Source of the DNA: Shigella phage ESH35
Reading direction: 5' to 3' (one strand)
DNA length: 64,000 bases
Sequence record: ON528745
In this document: positions 2,990-49,056 of the stretch, piece by piece
Position numbering within the stretch: position 1 is the first letter of the stretch
How the letters are laid out: every line of letters starts with the position of its first letter
The notes under the pieces: generated by a model
The model's input: only the letters and a program-made list of their open reading frames with translations
Database searches by the model: none
Told to the model about the DNA's origin: nothing
Translations under genes and position numbers: made by a program

Positions 2990-4015
2990 ATGAAAACTCG
3001 TTCTCAAATTGAAGATATGGTTCGTAATTGCAGCTATACTCGTGATGTTATGACATTTTTGTGCCAAAATAATTTAGACCCTGATAAAGTTAATCGTGAT
3101 ATTCACTTTAAATATATGAATAGCAGTGAATGGTTACGTCATTTTAGTAAAGCAGGGTATATTACGCAAATGACTGCTCGTGAACAGCTCACCGATTTCT
3201 GTAAAACTATTGATTATAAAAATCCTCTATTTGTTCAAGGTGTTGGTCAGAGTAAGGTCGATTTATCATCTGGATTTTTCAATCCAAATCATTATCGTAT
3301 TGAATGGAGATTTATTGCTCTATTCCGTAAACAATTAAAGCAAATTTTGTCGACGGCTAGTCGATTAAAAGGTTCTGACATTAACTTAAAGAATCTGAAA
3401 TTTGATGGTTATACTCTTCAGATGGAAGTAAGACCATTAAAAGAAAATAATAGAACTGCACGAATTAGCTTTAAACCTAGTACTAAAAATTCTCTTTCAA
3501 TTTGTGAATGTCTTAAATCACAGCTGACAGAAGCATTTAAGTATATGGATGTTGTTGCTGCTGTTCAATCTAAGATTTCGCAGCATTTCGAACGATTTAA
3601 ATTAGATACGACAACATATGAACTTGATATGATCGTTTCATTTAAATATGATTTTTTGAGAAAGGACGAAGTTACACAAGAGAAAAAGCAGGAAGTGCAA
3701 GATAACTTAAATTTAAATTTATCCAATTACTTATCAAACGATCCTAAATTTTGGATGTATAGTTCAGGTAATAAGGATGCATGGAAATTCAATAAAGTGA
3801 ATTTTCTTCCTATTGAAAATCCTAGTCTTAAACCTGTTGAAAAATGGCATGCAGATGCGATTGAGAAGTCTCTTAAGGCAGTAGATGATGAACTCGTTAA
3901 AGCGACCAATGAAGTGCTAGAAGCTGAAAAGGCGTTAGAACAAGCTCAGTCAAGGGTTCAAAATCTGACAAAGCAACGTTCTAAACTGAACAATGCACTA
4001 AATGCACTGAACTAG
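2990..4015 (+). CDS. hypothetical protein with C-terminal coiled coil (family member 2)
   Basis: 341-aa ORF starting MKTR..; ends in about 45-aa predicted coiled coil (EAEKALEQAQSRVQNLTKQRSKLNNALNALN). Confidence 0.6.
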   Translation: MKTRSQIEDMVRNCSYTRDVMTFLCQNNLDPDKVNRDIHFKYMNSSEWLRHFSKAGYITQMTAREQLTDFCKTIDYKNPLFVQGVGQSKVDLSSGFFNPNHYRIEWRFIALFRKQLKQILSTASRLKGSDINLKNLKFDGYTLQMEVRPLKENNRTARISFKPSTKNSLSICECLKSQLTEAFKYMDVVAAVQSKISQHFERFKLDTTTYELDMIVSFKYDFLRKDEVTQEKKQEVQDNLNLNLSNYLSNDPKFWMYSSGNKDAWKFNKVNFLPIENPSLKPVEKWHADAIEKSLKAVDDELVKATNEVLEAEKALEQAQSRVQNLTKQRSKLNNALNALN

Positions 4016-4044
4016 TTTACTTTGCCACAAGGATGTGGTATAAT
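4015..4044 (+). promoter_or_regulatory. early promoter (second repeated type)
   Basis: GTTTACTTTGCCACAAGGATGTGGTATAAT; near-identical copy at about 49027. Confidence 0.55.
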
Positions 4045-17506: not shown

Positions 17507-17766
17507 CTTTTGATGAATTTAAAAATGTTATGATGAGTCAGCATTTTGAATGCGAAGTAAAAGATGATATTGGTCATAAAGAAATTATTGAATATTGGTT
17601 TGAACCGTTAGAGGTTGAAGATAATTGTATTAAAAAGGTTACAGTCTGCACTGACTGGGCTGTATCTTTTAACTTCAACATTTTAGATAATGACACACCT
17701 AAATCATTACAAGATATGGCTGTATCTTGTATTAAGGATGCATACTGTGAAGTTTTCGACATTTGA
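17503..17766 (+). CDS. hypothetical protein (46.2 position)
   Basis: 87-aa ORF overlapping gene 47 stop. Confidence 0.45.
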   Translation: MTFDEFKNVMMSQHFECEVKDDIGHKEIIEYWFEPLEVEDNCIKKVTVCTDWAVSFNFNILDNDTPKSLQDMAVSCIKDAYCEVFDI

Positions 17767-31084: not shown

Positions 31085-32512
31085 GTGGTAGAAATTATTC
31101 TTTCTCATCTTATATTTGATCAAGCTTATTTTTCAAAAGTTTGGCCATATATGGATTCAGAATATTTTGAAAGTGGTCCAGCTAAAAATACATTCAAATT
31201 AATTAAATCTCATGTTAATGAGTACCATAGCGTTCCATCTATTAATGCGTTAAATGTTGCATTAGAAAATAGTTCATTTACTGAAACAGAATATTCTGGT
31301 GTAAAAACACTTATTTCAAAACTGGCTGATTCTCCGGAAGACCACAGCTGGTTAGTAAAAGAAACAGAAAAATATGTTCAGCAAAGGGCGATGTTTAACG
31401 CCACATCTAAAATAATTGAAATTCAAACTAATGCTGAGCTTCCTCCGGAAAAACGAAATAAGAAAATGCCGGATGTTGGTGCTATTCCTGACATCATGCG
31501 CCAAGCATTATCAATTTCATTTGATAGTTACGTTGGTCATGATTGGATGGATGACTACGAAGCACGTTGGCTATCTTATATGAATAAAGCTCGTAAGGTT
31601 CCATTTAAACTCAGAATTCTAAACAAAATTACGAAAGGCGGAGCTGAAACTGGAACGCTGAACGTTTTAATGGCTGGCGTTAACGTTGGTAAGTCATTAG
31701 GATTGTGTTCATTGGCAGCAGATTATTTACAGCTCGGACATAATGTTCTTTACATTTCCATGGAAATGGCAGAAGAAGTCTGCGCTAAACGTATTGATGC
31801 TAATATGCTTGATGTTTCTCTTGATGACATTGATGATGGGCATATTTCTTACGCTGAGTATAAAGGAAAAATGGAAAAATGGCGTGAGAAATCTACTCTC
31901 GGTCGTTTAATCGTTAAACAGTATCCTACTGGTGGAGCAGATGCTAATACATTTCGATCGCTTTTAAACGAATTAAAGCTCAAGAAGAATTTTGTTCCAA
32001 CAATCATTATTGTCGACTATCTGGGTATTTGTAAATCTTGCCGCATTAGAGTTTACTCAGAAAATAGTTACACAACTGTTAAAGCCATTGCAGAGGAATT
32101 ACGTGCTCTTGCTGTTGAAACCGAAACTGTTCTTTGGACTGCAGCACAGGTTGGTAAACAAGCTTGGGATTCTTCTGATGTTAACATGAGCGATATTGCA
32201 GAATCTGCCGGTCTTCCAGCAACAGCTGATTTTATGCTTGCGGTCATTGAAACCGAGGAGTTAGCAGCTGCTGAACAACAACTTATTAAGCAAATCAAAT
32301 CACGATATGGTGATAAGAATAAATGGAATAAGTTTTTGATGGGTGTTCAAAAAGGAAATCAGAAATGGGTAGAAATTGAACAAGATTCTACTCCAACCGA
32401 AGTGAGTGAAGTAGCAGGTTCACAACAGATTCAGGCTGAACAGAATCGCTATCAAAGAAACGAATCAGCTCGAGCTCAGTTAGATGCTTTGGCAAATGAA
32501 TTAAAATTTTAG
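31085..32512 (+). CDS. 41: replicative DNA helicase gp41 (DnaB family)
   Basis: 475 aa; Walker A GVNVGKS; GTG start. Confidence 0.95.
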   Translation: MVEIILSHLIFDQAYFSKVWPYMDSEYFESGPAKNTFKLIKSHVNEYHSVPSINALNVALENSSFTETEYSGVKTLISKLADSPEDHSWLVKETEKYVQQRAMFNATSKIIEIQTNAELPPEKRNKKMPDVGAIPDIMRQALSISFDSYVGHDWMDDYEARWLSYMNKARKVPFKLRILNKITKGGAETGTLNVLMAGVNVGKSLGLCSLAADYLQLGHNVLYISMEMAEEVCAKRIDANMLDVSLDDIDDGHISYAEYKGKMEKWREKSTLGRLIVKQYPTGGADANTFRSLLNELKLKKNFVPTIIIVDYLGICKSCRIRVYSENSYTTVKAIAEELRALAVETETVLWTAAQVGKQAWDSSDVNMSDIAESAGLPATADFMLAVIETEELAAAEQQLIKQIKSRYGDKNKWNKFLMGVQKGNQKWVEIEQDSTPTEVSEVAGSQQIQAEQNRYQRNESARAQLDALANELKF

Positions 32513-32545
32513 TTTACAAGCTGACAAGACTATGGTATAGTAGTC
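32512..32545 (+). promoter_or_regulatory. early promoter upstream of dmd with 9-bp inverted repeat across the -10
   Basis: GTTTACAAGCTGA CAAGACTAT GGT ATAGTCTTG. Confidence 0.5.
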
Positions 32546-32570
32546 TTGTTGGTTAAATGAGGAGATTGTT

Positions 32571-32747
32571 ATGGAATTGGTAAAGGTAGTTTTTATGGGG
32601 TGGTTTAAGAATGAAAGCATGTTTACTAAAGAAATCACAATGATGAAAGATGACGTTCAATGGGCTACTACTCAATATGCTGAAGTTAATAAAGCATTAG
32701 TTGAAGCTTTCATTGATGACAAGAAAGTATGTGAAGTGGATTGCTGA
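32571..32747 (+). CDS. dmd: Dmd antitoxin (inhibitor of RnlA/LsoA)
   Basis: Not in track (58 aa); MELVKVVFMGWFKNESMFTKEITMMKDDVQWATTQYAEVNKALVEAFIDDKKVCEVDC recognised as T4 Dmd. Confidence 0.8.
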   Translation: MELVKVVFMGWFKNESMFTKEITMMKDDVQWATTQYAEVNKALVEAFIDDKKVCEVDC

Positions 32748-32754
32748 GGATAAT

Positions 32755-33012
32755 ATGCATATTGTTTTATTTAAACCTACTCCGTATAACGTCAGGAAAA
32801 ATACTCAATTCAAAGCACTTATTGCAGATACATGGGAATTGGTGTTAGATATTCCAGCAGAAGAAAGTCCTCCATTTGGTCGAGTGGAATTTATTAAGTT
32901 TGCTGTACGTCCTACGAAGAGGCAGATTCGTCAGTATAAAAGGTATTTTCGTAAAATCGTTAAGCTAGAGAAACAGTTTGTAACATGTGATTACGCAGAA
33001 GTTTTAAAATAG
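32755..33012 (+). CDS. gene 61.4-position protein (possible TifA-like ToxN inhibitor)
   Basis: Track ORF 32701 (TTG) trimmed to ATG after GAGGATAAT; 85 aa; assignment is by synteny and memory only. Confidence 0.5.
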   Translation: MHIVLFKPTPYNVRKNTQFKALIADTWELVLDIPAEESPPFGRVEFIKFAVRPTKRQIRQYKRYFRKIVKLEKQFVTCDYAEVLK

Positions 33013-33072
33013 CTGTTTACTTTTGTTGGAAATTGAGATACTATATAAACATAAACTACTGAGGAGATTATC

Positions 33073-33366
33073 ATGAAAAAATTTATTTTTGCTACAATTT
33101 TTACTTTGGCTTCTTGTGCTGCTCAGCCTGCTATGGCAGGTTATGATAAAGATTTGTGCGAATGGTCTATGACTGCTGATCAGACTGAGGTTGAAACTCA
33201 AATTGAAGCAGATATTATGAATATCGTTGAGCGCGATCGCCCTGAAATGAAAGCTGAAGTGCAAAAACAGCTTAAGTCTGGTGGTGTAATGCAGTATAAT
33301 TATGTTCTATATTGCGATAAAAACTTTAATAATAAAAATATCATCGCTGAAGTGGTAGGTGAATAA
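33073..33366 (+). CDS. sp: Spackle periplasmic protein
   Basis: 97 aa with signal peptide MKKFIFATIFTLASCAAQPAMA; T4 Sp length and position. Confidence 0.75.
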   Translation: MKKFIFATIFTLASCAAQPAMAGYDKDLCEWSMTADQTEVETQIEADIMNIVERDRPEMKAEVQKQLKSGGVMQYNYVLYCDKNFNNKNIIAEVVGE

Positions 33367-33992
33367 TGCTCTATCAAATGCACAAGTGCAAAGATACATA
33401 CAAATATAAAGGTGCCCAGTGTTATATCATTAATCGTGAAAACGCGGGTCCAGGTCATTCGCATCAATCACGGTTTGTATTCGTTAAAAACAATGAAATT
33501 ATAGCAGTTGCTAATTATATGCTTGTGACTAATGATGTTAATCCGGTGCCTTTTACATATTATAATCTAATGGACTTGGCGTACGATTATAATTGGTTTA
33601 ATCATGACACTTTGGCTCATATCGAAGGCGTAGGATTTGACATCTCTTATTCTAGTTACTCGTTGTGTCCTATGAGCAGAGCTCATAAAGAGCCTGAATA
33701 TTTTTCATTTCGTCGGCGTGTAGACTCTAAACGCAGTACAGAGTATGTCGGTGGAATCTTTGTTAAAGATAATCGAATTACTCGCATTATTTATCCTTTG
33801 GGCTGTGGTCAAAAAGATATTGATGTTGATTTAGACTTTACTGAAAACATCATTAATCATATTGCTTCTGTGTATTTTGATATTGATCACAAAATTGTAA
33901 TATGTGGATATGAATTACCATCAGAAAAACAGTCTAAAGTAGATGTTTCTATTGATGACCAAATTTTTAATGCTTTTATGAATAGAGGTTAA
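33366..33992 (+). CDS. gene 61.2-position protein (possible AdfA-like anti-DarT factor)
   Basis: 208 aa; syntenic with T4 61.2; function from memory, unverified. Confidence 0.5.
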   Translation: MLYQMHKCKDTYKYKGAQCYIINRENAGPGHSHQSRFVFVKNNEIIAVANYMLVTNDVNPVPFTYYNLMDLAYDYNWFNHDTLAHIEGVGFDISYSSYSLCPMSRAHKEPEYFSFRRRVDSKRSTEYVGGIFVKDNRITRIIYPLGCGQKDIDVDLDFTENIINHIASVYFDIDHKIVICGYELPSEKQSKVDVSIDDQIFNAFMNRG

Positions 33993-33993
33993 T

Positions 33994-34158
33994 ATGAAAA
34001 CATATAAAGAATTTATTAAAGAAGATATGGTAGCTGGAGATTCAGGTGGTAATCCTGAAAATATCTCTACTGGAACAACGTCAGGTGCTGTAGTAAATAA
34101 AGGTCCTGAACAGATTCCTAAAAAGAAAAAAGAGGAATCTAAAGAAAAAGAAGAGTAA
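33994..34158 (+). CDS. small Lys/Glu-rich protein (61.1 position)
   Basis: Not in track; about 54-aa ORF between 61.2 stop and gene 61 start. Confidence 0.35.
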   Translation: MKTYKEFIKEDMVAGDSGGNPENISTGTTSGAVVNKGPEQIPKKKKEESKEKEE

Positions 34159-34160
34159 AA

Positions 34161-35189
34161 ATGTCATTAATACCTTGGATTGATAATGAGTTTGCATACC
34201 GTGCATTGGCTCATTTACCTAAATTCGCACAAGTAAATAATAGTTCAACTTTTAAATTACGGTTTAGATGTCCCGTTTGTGGAGATTCAAAAACCGATCA
34301 AAATAAAGCCCGTGGATGGTATTATGGCGATAATAATGAAGGAAATATTCATTGTTATAACTGTAACTATCATGCACCAATTGGAATATATTTAAAGGAG
34401 TTTGAACCTGATTTATATCGTGAGTATATCTTTGAAATAAGAAAAGAAAAAGGTAAAAGTCGTCCAGTAGAAAAACCTAAAGAACTTCCTAAACAACCTG
34501 AGAAAAAAATAATTAAATCTCTTCCGTCATGTATTAGATTAGATAAACTGGCGGAAGACCATCCAATTATAAAATATGTAAAAGCTCGTTGTATTCCAAA
34601 GGATAAATGGAAATATCTTTGGTTTACAACCGAATGGCCTAAATTAGTTAATAGTATAGCGCCAGGAACATATAAAAAGGAAATACCTGAGCCTCGTCTT
34701 GTTATTCCAATTTATAATGCTAACGGAAAAGCCGAGTCTTTTCAAGGCCGTGCATTAAAGAAAGATGCTCCTCAAAAATATATCACCATAAAAGCTTATC
34801 CTGAAGCAACAAAAATCTATGGCGTTGAACGAGTTAAAGATGGTGATGTATATGTTCTAGAAGGACCTATAGATTCACTTTTTATTGAAAATGGTATAGC
34901 TATTACGGGTGGTCAATTAGACCTAGAAGTTGTTCCATTTAAAGATAGACGTGTGTGGGTTTTAGATAATGAACCTCGTCATCCTGACACTATTAAACGA
35001 ATGACTAAATTAGTTGATGCAGGAGAAAGGGTTATGTTTTGGGACAAATCTCCCTGGAAATCAAAAGATGTTAATGATATGATTAGAAAGGAAGGTGCAA
35101 CCCCTGAACAAATTATGGAATATATGAAAAATAATATTGCTCAGGGGTTGATGGCTAAAATGCGGTTATCTAAATATGCTAAGATTTAA
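34161..35189 (+). CDS. 61: DNA primase gp61
   Basis: 342 aa; zinc ribbon CPVCGDS...CYNCNYH, TOPRIM core; recognised T4 gp61. Confidence 0.95.
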   Translation: MSLIPWIDNEFAYRALAHLPKFAQVNNSSTFKLRFRCPVCGDSKTDQNKARGWYYGDNNEGNIHCYNCNYHAPIGIYLKEFEPDLYREYIFEIRKEKGKSRPVEKPKELPKQPEKKIIKSLPSCIRLDKLAEDHPIIKYVKARCIPKDKWKYLWFTTEWPKLVNSIAPGTYKKEIPEPRLVIPIYNANGKAESFQGRALKKDAPQKYITIKAYPEATKIYGVERVKDGDVYVLEGPIDSLFIENGIAITGGQLDLEVVPFKDRRVWVLDNEPRHPDTIKRMTKLVDAGERVMFWDKSPWKSKDVNDMIRKEGATPEQIMEYMKNNIAQGLMAKMRLSKYAKI

Positions 35190-43642: not shown

Positions 43643-43705
43643 AAAGTTGTTTACTTCCTCGGTTAGTTGTGGTATTATAACACCATAGCTACTGAGGATA
43701 ATAAA

Positions 43706-44227: not shown

Positions 44228-44728
44228 ATGATTAAAATTAATACTACGTATCAAATGAAAAAACCATCTGAAATTGATTTCCAGACAATGTCGAATACGA
44301 CTGATAGCAAGTTTTGGGAACTTCTTGGTACAACTGGCGGATATCCTTTTACTGTTATTAGTGTTAATAGCGGAATTCTCATTGGTACAGTGTACATGGA
44401 AATTAGAAACTATTATGGAAGGGTATCATCATTCATCATCTATGAAGAAGATTTCAATTTATTGACAGAAATTGAAAAAGAAGAACAAGAAAAATCCCAT
44501 ATTGATATGGATTTAGTTTCTATGTATGTAACACCAGTTGAAAAAATTGAAGACCCGACTGATTTGTTGTGTAAGGCAGTTTATATTCGTCGTCCATTCG
44601 CGAATCCGATTGGCGGTTGGGTAACTGATCAGTGGATTGAAGATGGTGTTGAACTTCTGAACGTAGTTCATGCTGGAGAGTACTCTGTAGTTCCTCGCAG
44701 CGCAGTGATTAATGTTCGTGTAAGCTAG
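44228..44728 (+). CDS. hypothetical protein (paralog pair A)
   Basis: 166 aa; C-terminal motif VTDQWIEDGVELLNVVHAGEYSVVP. Confidence 0.5.
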   Translation: MIKINTTYQMKKPSEIDFQTMSNTTDSKFWELLGTTGGYPFTVISVNSGILIGTVYMEIRNYYGRVSSFIIYEEDFNLLTEIEKEEQEKSHIDMDLVSMYVTPVEKIEDPTDLLCKAVYIRRPFANPIGGWVTDQWIEDGVELLNVVHAGEYSVVPRSAVINVRVS

Positions 44729-44801
44729 TTTACAAACTCTTGGGATCAGAGTATAATGGTCCTGCGGAGTATAAAATCTTTTTAACAAGTGAGAGATAAT
44801 T

Positions 44802-47206: not shown

Positions 47207-49024
47207 ATGATTAAGAATGAAATTAAAATTCTGAGCGATATTGAACATATCAAAAAGCGTAGCGGCATGTATATTGGCTCTTCTGCTAATGAAATGCATG
47301 AGCGCTTTCTGTTTGGTAAATGGGAAAGTGTTCAGTATGTACCTGGTCTTGTTAAGCTTATTGATGAAATTATCGATAACTCAGTAGATGAAGGTATTCG
47401 TACTAAGTTTAAATTCGCGAATAAAATTAATGTTACCATTAAAGATAATCAGGTAACAGTTGAAGATAACGGTCGCGGTATTCCACAAGCGATGGTTAAA
47501 ACACCTACTGGTGAAGAAATTCCTGGTCCTGTTGCTGCCTGGACTATTCCAAAAGCAGGTGGTAACTTCGGTGATGATAAAGAACGCGTCACCGGTGGTA
47601 TGAATGGTGTTGGTTCTAGTTTGACAAACATTTTTTCTGTGATGTTTGTCGGTGAAACTGGCGATGGTCAAAATAATATTGTAGTTCGTTGTTCAAATGG
47701 TATGGAAAATAAATCCTGGGAAACTATTCCTGGAAAATGGAAAGGAACTCGTGTTACTTTCATTCCTGATTTTATGTCATTTGAAACTAATGAGCTGTCT
47801 CAGGTTTATCTTGACATTACACTGGACCGTCTCCAGACACTTGCTGTCGTTTATCCTGATATTCAATTTACTTTTAATGGTAAAAAGGTTCAGGGCAATT
47901 TTAAGAAATATGCACGACAGTATGATGAACATGCTATTGTTCAAGAACAAGAAAATTGTTCTATTGCGGTTGGTCGTTCACCGGATGGTTTTCGTCAATT
48001 AACTTACGTGAATAACATTCATACTAAGAATGGTGGCCATCACATTGACTGTGTTATGGATGATATTTGCGAAGACCTTATTCCACAAATCAAACGTAAA
48101 TTCAAAATTGATGTAACTAAAGCACGCGTTAAAGAATGTTTGACTATCGTTATGTTTGTTCGTGATATGAAAAACATGCGATTTGATTCTCAAACTAAAG
48201 AGCGTTTGACTTCTCCATTTGGCGAAATTCGTAGTCATATTCAACTTGATGCTAAAAAGATTTCACGCGCTATTCTAAATAATGAAGCAATTCTGATGCC
48301 GATTATTGAAGCTGCGTTGGCTCGTAAATTGGCGGCAGAAAAAGCAGCAGAAACTAAAGCAGCTAAAAAGGCTTCTAAAGCTAAGGTTCATAAACATATC
48401 AAAGCGAATCTTTGTGGTAAAGATGCTGACACTACTCTTTTCTTGACTGAGGGTGATTCTGCTATCGGATATCTTATTGATGTTCGTGATAAAGAACTTC
48501 ATGGTGGTTATCCATTGCGTGGTAAAGTTCTTAACAGCTGGGGTATGTCATATGCTGATATGCTTAAAAACAAAGAACTATTTGATATTTGCGCAATCAC
48601 TGGATTAGTTCTTGGTGAAAAAGCTGAAAACTTGAATTATCATAATATTGCTATTATGACCGATGCTGACCATGATGGTCTAGGAAGCATTTATCCTTCT
48701 CTGCTCGGGTTTTTTAGTAATTGGCCAGAATTGTTTGAGCAAGGACGAATTCGCTTTGTCAAAACTCCTGTAATCATCGCTCAGGTCGGTAAAAAACAAG
48801 AATGGTTTTATACAATCGCTGAATATGAGAGTGCCAAAGATGCTCTACCTAAACATAGCATCCGTTATATTAAAGGACTTGGCTCTTTGGAAAAATCTGA
48901 ATATCGTGAGATGATTCAAAATCCAGCATATGATGTTGTTAAACTTCCTGAGAACTGGAAAGAGCTTTTTGAAATGCTCATGGGAGATAATGCTGACCTT
49001 CGCAAAGAATGGATGAGCCAGTAG
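47207..49024 (+). CDS. 39: DNA topoisomerase II large subunit, fused gp39+gp60 type (GHKL ATPase + TOPRIM)
   Basis: About 605-aa single ORF (track 47204 GTG, ATG at 47207); MIKNEIKILSDIEHIKKRSGMYIGS.. recognised; longer than split T4 gp39. Confidence 0.92.
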   Translation: MIKNEIKILSDIEHIKKRSGMYIGSSANEMHERFLFGKWESVQYVPGLVKLIDEIIDNSVDEGIRTKFKFANKINVTIKDNQVTVEDNGRGIPQAMVKTPTGEEIPGPVAAWTIPKAGGNFGDDKERVTGGMNGVGSSLTNIFSVMFVGETGDGQNNIVVRCSNGMENKSWETIPGKWKGTRVTFIPDFMSFETNELSQVYLDITLDRLQTLAVVYPDIQFTFNGKKVQGNFKKYARQYDEHAIVQEQENCSIAVGRSPDGFRQLTYVNNIHTKNGGHHIDCVMDDICEDLIPQIKRKFKIDVTKARVKECLTIVMFVRDMKNMRFDSQTKERLTSPFGEIRSHIQLDAKKISRAILNNEAILMPIIEAALARKLAAEKAAETKAAKKASKAKVHKHIKANLCGKDADTTLFLTEGDSAIGYLIDVRDKELHGGYPLRGKVLNSWGMSYADMLKNKELFDICAITGLVLGEKAENLNYHNIAIMTDADHDGLGSIYPSLLGFFSNWPELFEQGRIRFVKTPVIIAQVGKKQEWFYTIAEYESAKDALPKHSIRYIKGLGSLEKSEYREMIQNPAYDVVKLPENWKELFEMLMGDNADLRKEWMSQ

Positions 49025-49026
49025 TT

Positions 49027-49056
49027 TACTTTACCACAAGGATGTGGTATAATTAA
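49027..49056 (+). promoter_or_regulatory. early promoter upstream of rIIA.1/rIIA
   Basis: GTTTACTTTACCACAAGGATGTGGTATAAT, one mismatch from the 4015 copy. Confidence 0.55.

Follow-up and report, generated by a model that had tools for sequence, protein, structure and literature searches.

The closest described counterpart of the locus analysed here is a region of phage T4 that Srikant et al. (2022, eLife) named a possible "anti-TA island" (PMC9391042). In that region, dmd and tifA form a two-gene operon, and another promoter follows tifA (PMC9391042). Inhibition of ToxN has been assayed for the TifA homologs of T4, T2, and T6 (PMC9391042), and both this inhibition and RNA binding require a Pro-Thr helix cap and a basic cluster formed by K55, R56, and R59 (PMC10853763). 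Spackle, the product of sp, acts in the periplasm, where it inhibits gp5, the tail lysozyme, of phages that superinfect the cell (PMC7677548, PMC7650644), and the residues by which it contacts gp5 have been listed (PMC7677548). In AdfA, a His at the position equivalent to residue 164 of the RB69 protein characterizes the DarT1-neutralising allele. Deletion of adfA in T4 had no phenotype on DarTG1, even in the absence of adfN, and the authors suggested that T4 AdfA neutralises another DarT homolog (PMC11257639).

The DNA upstream of dmd has a second point of comparison, the promoter-early stem-loops (PeSLs), cassettes in which T4-type phages combine a promoter with a terminator (Arbiol et al. 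2010, PMC2839356; Comeau et al. 2014, PMC4122927). [quoted passage not shown] The stems of PST/T4 PeSLs were described just upstream of the promoter, whereas those of RB49/phi1 overlap the -10.

The T4 gene string in phage ESH35

We analysed a stretch of 64,000 nucleotides from Shigella phage ESH35 (record ON528745), hereafter called the window. Positions 32571-33992 contain four ORFs, all on the + strand, between helicase gene 41 and primase gene 61 (Table 1). Their order and coordinates agree with the T4 string 41/dmd/61.4/sp/61.2/61.1/61. The likeness to the T4 island (PMC9391042) extends to the genes themselves, their orientation, and their flanks, with proteins 96-98% identical. The spacer between tifA and sp is near-identical in the two phages, and a single base distinguishes their promoters and inverted repeats upstream of dmd. 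None of the changes between ESH35 and T4 affects a documented functional residue, except possibly in Dmd. Very probably, then, the region from gene 41 to gene 61 is the T4 gene string in a Tequatrovirus, to whose dmd, tifA, sp, and adfA we attribute functions by homology to the T4 proteins.

Table 1. Features of the dmd-adfA region of phage ESH35, in window positions. Functions are those predicted by homology.
Feature	Position	Strand	Description
Helicase gene 41	31085-32512	+	Upstream flank of the cluster
Candidate PeSL-type early promoter/stem-loop cassette	32499-32570	+	AT-rich stretch, -35, -10, inverted repeat, SD, before dmd
dmd (gene 61.5)	32571-32747	+	58 aa; antitoxin against RnlA/LsoA by homology; Pfam PF17587, T4 98%, PDB 5hy3_B
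tifA (gene 61.4)	32755-33012	+	85 aa; RNA-binding ToxN inhibitor by homology; Pfam DUF7279 (PF23945), T4 98%
tifA-sp intergenic region, promoter-like	33013-33072	+	60 bp; promoter downstream of tifA mentioned in PMC9391042
sp (gene 61.3, Spackle)	33073-33366	+	97 aa, 22-aa signal peptide; Pfam PF25676, T4 98%, PDB 6x6o
adfA (gene 61.2)	33366-33992	+	208 aa; anti-DarT factor A by homology; Pfam PF23813, T4 96%
Gene 61.1	33994-34158	+	54 aa, Lys/Glu-rich tail; same gene string; T4 gp61.1 96%
gp61 primase	34161-35189		Downstream flank

The initial annotation had named the four genes dmd, 61.4, sp, and 61.2. These identities are confirmed at the sequence level by the 96-98% identity to the T4 proteins and by the Pfam families. 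The same annotation had suggested that 61.4 encodes the ToxN inhibitor TifA and 61.2 the anti-DarT protein AdfA, and here the literature (PMC9391042, PMC10853763, PMC11257639) and the curated Pfam AdfA family agree with it. The ORF at 32755 aligns with gp61.4 at 98% identity and the ORF at 33366 with gp61.2 at 96%; both are thus similar to the expected T4 proteins, and the published functions map to these genes and not to others. A search of NCBIfam with the five proteins of the cluster matched no model. The product of gene 61.1, a gene beyond the range initially annotated, matched phrog_1823 (7e-34), a family of unknown function, and had no match in Pfam.

The cluster had also been proposed to hold four anti-defence functions. 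This stands for three of them, dmd, tifA, and adfA, but Spackle is a superinfection exclusion protein (PMC7677548, PMC7650644) that does not counter a host defence, so the cluster consists of three anti-TA genes and one exclusion gene. The expectation that the locus would hold lineage-specific variants proved right, yet such variants were already published for position 41 of TifA and position 164 of AdfA. Indeed, nothing in the cluster itself, the functions of its genes, these two allele determinants, or the concept of an anti-TA island is new to the literature. The main use of the locus is its correct annotation, with little significance beyond it. In most deposited relatives, tifA and adfA are labelled "hypothetical protein", and some relatives have erroneous labels ("DNA polymerase", "DNA primase/helicase", or "major capsid protein", for example); proper naming of the two genes would be useful there. 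The sole new item at the locus is a private allele of Dmd, of uncertain consequence.

TifA, Spackle, and AdfA

The mechanically called ORF of tifA begins at a TTG at 32701, whereas the ATG equivalent to that of T4 is at 32755, 8 nt past the dmd stop. TifA matches DUF7279 with 72 bits (cut-off 24.5; E 3.7e-20) and differs from T4 gp61.4 by C61Y and I83V. Alignment with the T4, T2, T6, and RB69 proteins shows no variation at P53, T54, K55, R56, and R59. By analogy with the tested homologs of T4, T2, and T6, ESH35 TifA would inhibit ToxN: its basic C-terminal helix, with the Pro-Thr cap and K55/R56/R59, would bind RNA, and the ToxN RNase would be held inactive in the resulting ribonucleoprotein. 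Residue 41 is a Phe, which is the T4-type, weaker allele and predicts a T4-like, weaker inhibition. In RB69, by contrast, TifA shares 57% identity, is without the C-terminal extension, and carries H41, the residue of the stronger inhibitor. The exact ESH35 allele of TifA is widespread (101 contigs, e.g., RB68).

Spackle matches its Pfam family with 150 bits (E 2.1e-44) and the solved structure 6x6o at 3e-61. It differs from the T4 protein by A11T and K53E, and it conserves the cysteines C29 and C81 as well as the gp5-contact residues S32-A35, Q37, and N76. Its expression would start at a second promoter region, ahead of sp. The protein would be exported to the periplasm and there inhibit the gp5 lysozyme in the tails of phages arriving later, and so cause superinfection exclusion.

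AdfA is matched over its full length by its curated family (residues 1-208 on profile positions 1-211; 448 bits, E 4.6e-135). It differs from the T4 protein by eight substitutions and is 70% identical to that of RB69. Its H165 aligns with R164 of RB69 (IINHIAS here, NINRIAS in RB69), the latter being the non-neutralising residue. ESH35 AdfA therefore belongs by alignment to the His class reported to neutralise DarT1 (PMC11257639), and would bind a DarT ADP-ribosyltransferase toxin. A search for solved structures of AdfA found none. The two halves of the protein share VK[DN]N and xxHIxxVxFDI motifs, which raised the possibility of an internal duplication, yet BLASTP gave an E-value of 0.037 over 19 residues and hhalign of the small half-profiles a probability of 12% over 16 columns; the duplication is unsupported.

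The anti-DarT role given to 61.2 in the initial annotation is thus upheld as far as the family assignment and the His allele go, but not by the deletion experiment in T4. Because that deletion gave no phenotype, we can only infer the activity for ESH35. AdfA might be ineffective against the studied DarT1 and act on another DarT homolog or in another role, which would leave two demonstrably active anti-TA genes in the cluster. We consider this a serious contender, albeit not the reading we favour. It accords with the T4 result, obtained even in a phage lacking adfN, and with the other target proposed by the authors (PMC11257639). It also accords with the fact that ESH35 AdfA is 96% identical to the T4 protein and only 70% identical to the RB69 protein, the one in which R164H conferred binding. 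Nevertheless, the His at the determinant position, of the class reported to neutralise DarT1, and the full-length match to the family argue against it.

A private allele of Dmd

Dmd would bind and block the HEPN RNases RnlA and LsoA. The ESH35 protein matches PF17587 over model positions 1-58 of 60 (146.5 bits, cut-off 27; E 2.8e-43) and the solved structure 5hy3_B at 6e-35, and it agrees with T4 Dmd at 57 of 58 aligned positions. It differs from the latter by K45E and by a stop at codon 59 (R59stop, CGA>TGA at 32745), by which the two C-terminal residues are lost. With 58 aa, it is outside the norm of 60-63 aa for full-length proteins of this kind. Both K45 and the terminal Arg-Gly that it lacks are kept in six other lineages: T4, T2, T6, ECO07P5, phage 132, and even RB69, whose Dmd is 55% identical.

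Among approximately 15 billion proteins, this 58-aa sequence occurs exactly once, in Shigella phage ESH35. The change to a stop at codon 59 is absent from IMG/VR, and K45E occurs in one other viral contig only, in a second, independent, full-length allele of Dmd. Together, K45E and the codon-59 stop are the only lineage-specific feature of the cluster.

Judging from the change of two positions that are otherwise conserved in all the other lineages examined, ESH35 Dmd may not behave like T4 Dmd. One could go further and suppose that it is weakened, inactivated, or re-targeted, instead of being a working antitoxin of the T4 type. The nature of the changes would suit such a protein: K45E reverses a charge within the invariant NALVKAF segment, the stop deletes a conserved C-terminal Arg-Gly, and the resulting sequence is as rare as described above. 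We nonetheless think this unlikely, given the near-complete identity to T4 Dmd and the strong match to nearly the whole Pfam model, and K45E is evidently tolerated in nature because it is present in a second, independent, full-length allele. A text search of the literature for contact roles of K45 or R59 of Dmd found none. If Dmd were weakened, this could have originated by relaxed selection on Shigella/E. coli hosts without rnlAB/lsoAB or by adaptation to a variant toxin.

It is quite doubtful that this singleton allele is a natural variant of the phage antitoxin with changed specificity or lost function. If it were, it would mark either an adaptation to a divergent RnlA/LsoA-type toxin of Shigella or the decay of dmd where the defence is absent, and K45 and the Arg-Gly tail would be identified as toxin-recognition determinants of Dmd. 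The working T4-type antitoxin remains our preferred reading of the gene.

Promoters and the stem-loop upstream of dmd

The promoter of dmd, TTTACA-17-TATAGT (32513-32541; -35 at 32513-32518 and -10 at 32536-32541), agrees at 11 of 12 positions with the PST/T4 consensus TTTACW-N17-TAYWAT, its -10 being one position off TAYWAT. It is an exact match to GTTTAC-N18-TATANT, a pattern found at 14 sites of the window (2.7 expected), nearly always on the + strand. This early, sigma70-type promoter would drive a bicistronic dmd-tifA message immediately after infection. The -10 is bracketed by a perfect 9-bp inverted repeat with arms at 32524-32532 (ACAAGACTA) and 32541-32549 (TAGTCTTGT) and a loop of 8 nt. 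At the RNA level, the stem extends to 15 bp (32519-32533/32540-32554), including 4 G-U pairs, with the -10 in and around the loop and a folding energy of -19.8 to -21.2 kcal/mol (z -3.9 to -5.0).

The initial annotation had put the whole cluster behind one promoter with this repeat. The repeat and the promoter are real, but dmd and tifA form an operon of their own in T4, with a further promoter downstream (PMC9391042). At the corresponding place in ESH35, the tifA-sp spacer contains a GTTTAC at 33015-33020 and the SD sequence GAGGAG at 33061-33066, and its 60 bp are almost invariant in T4, T2, T6, Ge15, and ECO07P5. No strong stem-loop was found in this spacer (fold z +1.1), and its promoter-like site did not reach the cut-off of the consensus scan.

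The element upstream of dmd fits the PeSL class. It shares with these cassettes a stop codon in an AT-rich stretch upstream (here AATTAAAATTTTAG, with the stop of gene 41), the TTTACA box, the 17-bp spacer, a stem-loop over the -10, and a 3' end made of an SD sequence (GAGGAG, 32559-32564) and the ATG (32571). It is also located like them, in a variable region of accessory genes with indels adjoining it in relatives. By analogy with the PeSLs, the repeat would act as the stem-loop of a composite element: in RNA reading through from uvsX-40-41, the hairpin of about 15 bp would attenuate or end the upstream transcripts, and the same DNA would restart transcription for dmd-tifA. An intrinsic terminator at the repeat is not supported: the terminator scan made no call there, and no U-run follows the stem-loop. 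A scan of 32000-34600 with Rfam at E<=1 found no RNA family. Another repeat of the window, at 17708 (TACAAGATA), was considered as a relative of the dmd repeat and is unrelated, lying within coding sequence.

The stem-loop is conserved in T4, T2, T6, and a lineage of approximately 85% identity. Of the six substitutions in or beside the stem, five preserve pairing of the RNA type; a disrupting A-C is present once, in T6, and no compensatory double changes were found among the relatives compared. In the approximately 85% lineage, identity is high from the 3' end of gene 41 across the spacer and falls only inside dmd, so that conservation alone cannot prove selection on the stem; that of the spacer could reflect a recombination boundary inside dmd.

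A lone repeat of this kind is not rare, since the window has 13 perfect 9-bp repeats and first-order Markov simulations yield 5.3 ± 3.1. This figure, the lack of a U-run, terminator call, and fully compensatory changes, and the operator-like position over the -10 and the start site would all be compatible with a chance palindrome or with a DNA operator for a dimeric regulator. Yet either is improbable: the substitutions favour strand-specific pairing tolerant of G-U, which argues for RNA over DNA symmetry, the stem reaches 15 bp only when such pairs are allowed, and the layout recurs, with stems at the same place in other promoters of the window (43649, 44728, 4015, and 49024), and fits that of experimentally tested PeSLs. 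In phage 132, moreover, an inserted ORF has a promoter whose -10 is bracketed by a 10-bp repeat of different sequence.

As inferred from the work on RB49/phi1, PeSL cassettes could further serve as recombination points that shuffle accessory genes. The content of the island varies by insertions or replacements in Ge15, T2, ECO07P5, phage 132, RB69, and L006. RB69 has homologous genes in the same relative order (dmd-tifA-imm.1-imm-sp-adfA); additional ORFs separate 41 from dmd, imm.1 and imm separate tifA from sp, and two more ORFs follow adfA. The insertion in phage 132 brings its own promoter and repeat.

Gene content and published functions of the island

Five closely packed ORFs lie between the genes of a gp41-type helicase and a gp61-type primase, the whole string being on the + strand. 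The initial annotation had named four of them dmd, 61.4, sp and 61.2, rightly, since their products are 96-98% identical to the T4 proteins and match Pfam families; alignment of the ORFs at 32755 and 33366 with T4 gp61.4 and gp61.2 gave 98% and 96% identity. For tifA (61.4) we took the T4-equivalent ATG at 32755 as the start; the mechanical ORF opens at a TTG further upstream. PHROGs assignments are consistent with Pfam for the island proteins, and none of the five has an NCBIfam model. The 61.1 product, just beyond the range first annotated, had no match in Pfam; it has a Lys/Glu-rich tail and a second PHROG match, to the C-terminal third of phrog_2086 (156 aa; 2.6e-16). Dmd (5hy3, 5i8j) and Spackle (6x6o, 7cn6) have solved structures, and the look-up found none for TifA and AdfA. 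The region matched 539 phage records by megablast (top identity 98.5%), nearly all Tequatrovirus, i.e. T4-like phages of Escherichia, Shigella, Yersinia and Salmonella. In the T4 reference record the genes stand in the identical order 41, dmd, 61.4, sp, 61.2, 61.1, 61, and the window shows the plain T4 arrangement.

Coordinates of features in the window and of short AdfA paralogs in relatives
Feature	Location	Strand	Details
Early promoter, stem in spacer	4015-4044
gp41-type replicative helicase	31085-32512	+	475 aa; left flank of island
Perfect 9-bp inverted repeat	32524-32532 / 32541-32549		8-nt loop
dmd	32571-32747	+	58 aa; 98% identity with T4 Dmd; Pfam Dmd 2.8e-43
61.4/tifA	32755-33012	+	85 aa; 98% identity with T4 gp61.4; Pfam DUF7279 3.7e-20
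sp (Spackle)	33073-33366	+	97 aa; 98% identity with T4; Pfam T4_Spackle 2.1e-44
61.2/adfA	33366-33992	+	208 aa; 96% identity with T4 gp61.2; Pfam "Anti-DarT factor A" 4.6e-135, end to end
61.1	33994-34158	+	54 aa; 96% identity with T4 gp61.1
gp61-type primase	34161-35189	+	342 aa; right flank of island
Early promoter, stem bracketing -10	43649-43700		z = -6.0
Early promoter, stem bracketing -10	44728-44765
Early promoter, stem in spacer	49024-49053
Short AdfA paralog, Ge15	L001:3095-3451
Short AdfA paralog, IMG/VR contig	L006:5432-5791
Short AdfA paralog, ECO07P5	L009:4059-4415
Short AdfA paralog, T2	L011:4082-4408		annotated 61.2

The literature already covers the cluster, the functions of its genes, the allele determinants, the promoter/stem-loop class and the concept of an "island"; the private Dmd allele is the one new item of the locus. 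Srikant et al. (2022) renamed 61.4 tifA, its protein being an inhibitor of ToxN, described dmd and tifA as a two-gene locus with an early promoter upstream of dmd, gave 61.2 as adfA with reference to LeRoux et al. (2022), and raised neighbouring genes as anti-toxin candidates (PMC9391042). The identification of 61.4 as TifA and of 61.2 as AdfA was thus accurate (PMC9391042, PMC11257639). The core of the initial annotation is correct, and three details were overstated: Spackle, the single promoter and AdfA activity. Among the "four anti-defence functions" that it counted, dmd, tifA and adfA stand as anti-toxin genes, but Spackle does not counter host defence: this protein acts in the periplasm, to which it is exported, as an inhibitor of the gp5 tail-spike lysozyme domain of superinfecting phages (PMC7677548, PMC7650644). 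Nor do the four genes depend on one promoter, as had been proposed: Srikant et al. mention another downstream of tifA (PMC9391042), and the spacer of 60 bp between tifA and sp hardly varies among T4, T2, T6, Ge15 and ECO07P5.

Alleles of the island proteins

Dmd differs from that of T4 by two changes, K45E (AAA>GAA) and CGA>TGA at codon 59, which loses Arg-Gly. Exact-sequence look-up found this 58-aa form in a single record, Shigella phage ESH35. K45 and the terminal RG are both kept in T2, T6, ECO07P5, phage 132 and RB69, even where overall identity falls to 55-67%. The two changes may alter the inhibition of RnlA/LsoA. A search of IMG/VR found no recurrence of the codon-59 stop; K45E was seen again in one full-length metagenomic allele. 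Since the early stop falls on the tifA Shine-Dalgarno sequence, 7 nt upstream of the ATG, the coupling of dmd to tifA is probably unaffected.

The AdfA allele was likewise found only in the ESH35 record, and those of TifA, Spackle and 61.1 are widespread. At position 164 of AdfA (RB69 numbering), His permits neutralisation of DarT1 whereas Arg does not, according to the DarTG1 paper of the LeRoux lab (PMC11257639); AdfA activity in T4-type phages is inferred rather than demonstrated. In the window the corresponding residue is His (H165). In the IMG/VR contig IMGVR_UViG_3300010279_000005 (AdfA at L006:4789-5430), this determinant is Asn (NNINNIAS), a third allele class alongside His and Arg; the protein joins an RB69-like N-terminus to a T4-like remainder. 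To bind RNA and inhibit ToxN, TifA depends on the P53-T54 helix cap together with K55/R56/R59, and its position 41 sets potency, F (as in T4) being weaker and S or H stronger (Guegler et al., PMC10853763). Alignment with homologs showed F41 in the window, where the PT cap and the basic residues are also preserved. Spackle, aligned with T4, retains the signal peptide, the two cysteines and the gp5-contact residues listed in PMC7677548.

The dmd promoter and its inverted repeat

The promoter with a perfect 9-bp inverted repeat that had been reported upstream of dmd is present: it reads TTTACA-17-TATAGT with an upstream TG, and the arms flank the -10 hexamer. It matches exactly the pattern GTTTAC-N18-TATANT, of which the window has 14 instances, nearly all on the + strand, against 2.7 expected. 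Repeats of 9 bp are not rare (13 in the window, 5.3 +/- 3.1 simulated). The RNA stem reaches 15 bp with four G-U pairs (-19.8 kcal/mol, z = -3.9; z = -5.0 when folded in a slightly different frame), and the region matched no Rfam family. The repeat is also found in T4, T2, T6, Ge15, five IMG/VR contigs and a lineage about 85% identical. Of six substitutions within the stem or next to it, five retain or improve RNA-type pairing, and T6 has one A-C disruption; double compensatory changes were absent from the relatives compared, which leaves covariation no more than suggestive. The stem-loop might attenuate read-through from gene 41; as a terminator scan made no call at the stem and no U-run lies 3' of it, this role is proposed rather than shown.

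Judged by its layout, the promoter with its repeat falls into a known class, the promoter-early stem-loop (PeSL) cassettes of T4-type phages. These cluster in variable regions beside indels, have the consensus TTTACW-N17-TAYWAT in the PST/T4 pair, and showed promoter and terminator activity in RB49 examples (PMC2839356, PMC4122927). We place it there because -10 or spacer stems also occur at four other early promoters of the window and at one in Escherichia phage 132. The latter phage has an extra 83-aa ORF between tifA and sp (L010, about 3690-3996) with its own early promoter, which opens with GTTTACAAGCTGA, a head common to the dmd promoter, and in which a different 10-bp inverted repeat, AGCTGATAGA / TCTATCAGCT, brackets TATAGT. 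The arrangement resembles the insertion of a cassette mediated by a PeSL. TifA of phage 132 is shorter (80 aa), with a different C-terminus. The 4015 and 49024 promoters, 45 kb from each other, are 30-mers of near-identical sequence and thus possible recombination substrates.

Plasticity among relatives

In related phages the island is plastic. Several relatives carry a short paralog of the C-terminal half of AdfA (108-119 aa; BLASTP 9e-9; last 14 residues identical), which may be an alternative anti-DarT module. In Ge15 and one IMG/VR contig it is additional to adfA and placed after it (118-119 aa); in T2 and ECO07P5 the short form alone stands in place of adfA. The window lacks it at 33992/33994. 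Ge15 has a 49-bp direct repeat at the ends of both adfA and the paralog, and differs from the window by a 358-bp indel equal to the spacing of these repeats; the adfA end in the window carries the paralog-type base (R207).

In RB69, unlike the window, imm, imm.1 and several further ORFs are interspersed among the island genes. The superinfection-immunity genes imm and imm.1 lie between tifA and sp (L003:4012-4690), so that the superinfection-exclusion functions of imm and sp are adjacent in RB69, whereas imm lies elsewhere in T4 and in the window. The 61.1 product is also longer in RB69 (92 aa versus 54 aa). The differences in Ge15, T2, ECO07P5, phage 132 and RB69 support the suggestion that the locus holds lineage-specific variants. 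This has been published before, and the arrangement in the window is the plain T4 one. In the public annotations of relatives, tifA and adfA homologs are mostly "hypothetical", and some names are plainly wrong: 'DNA polymerase' (Shigella phage KNP5), 'DNA primase/helicase' (T6) and 'putative major capsid protein' (pSe_SNUABM_01).
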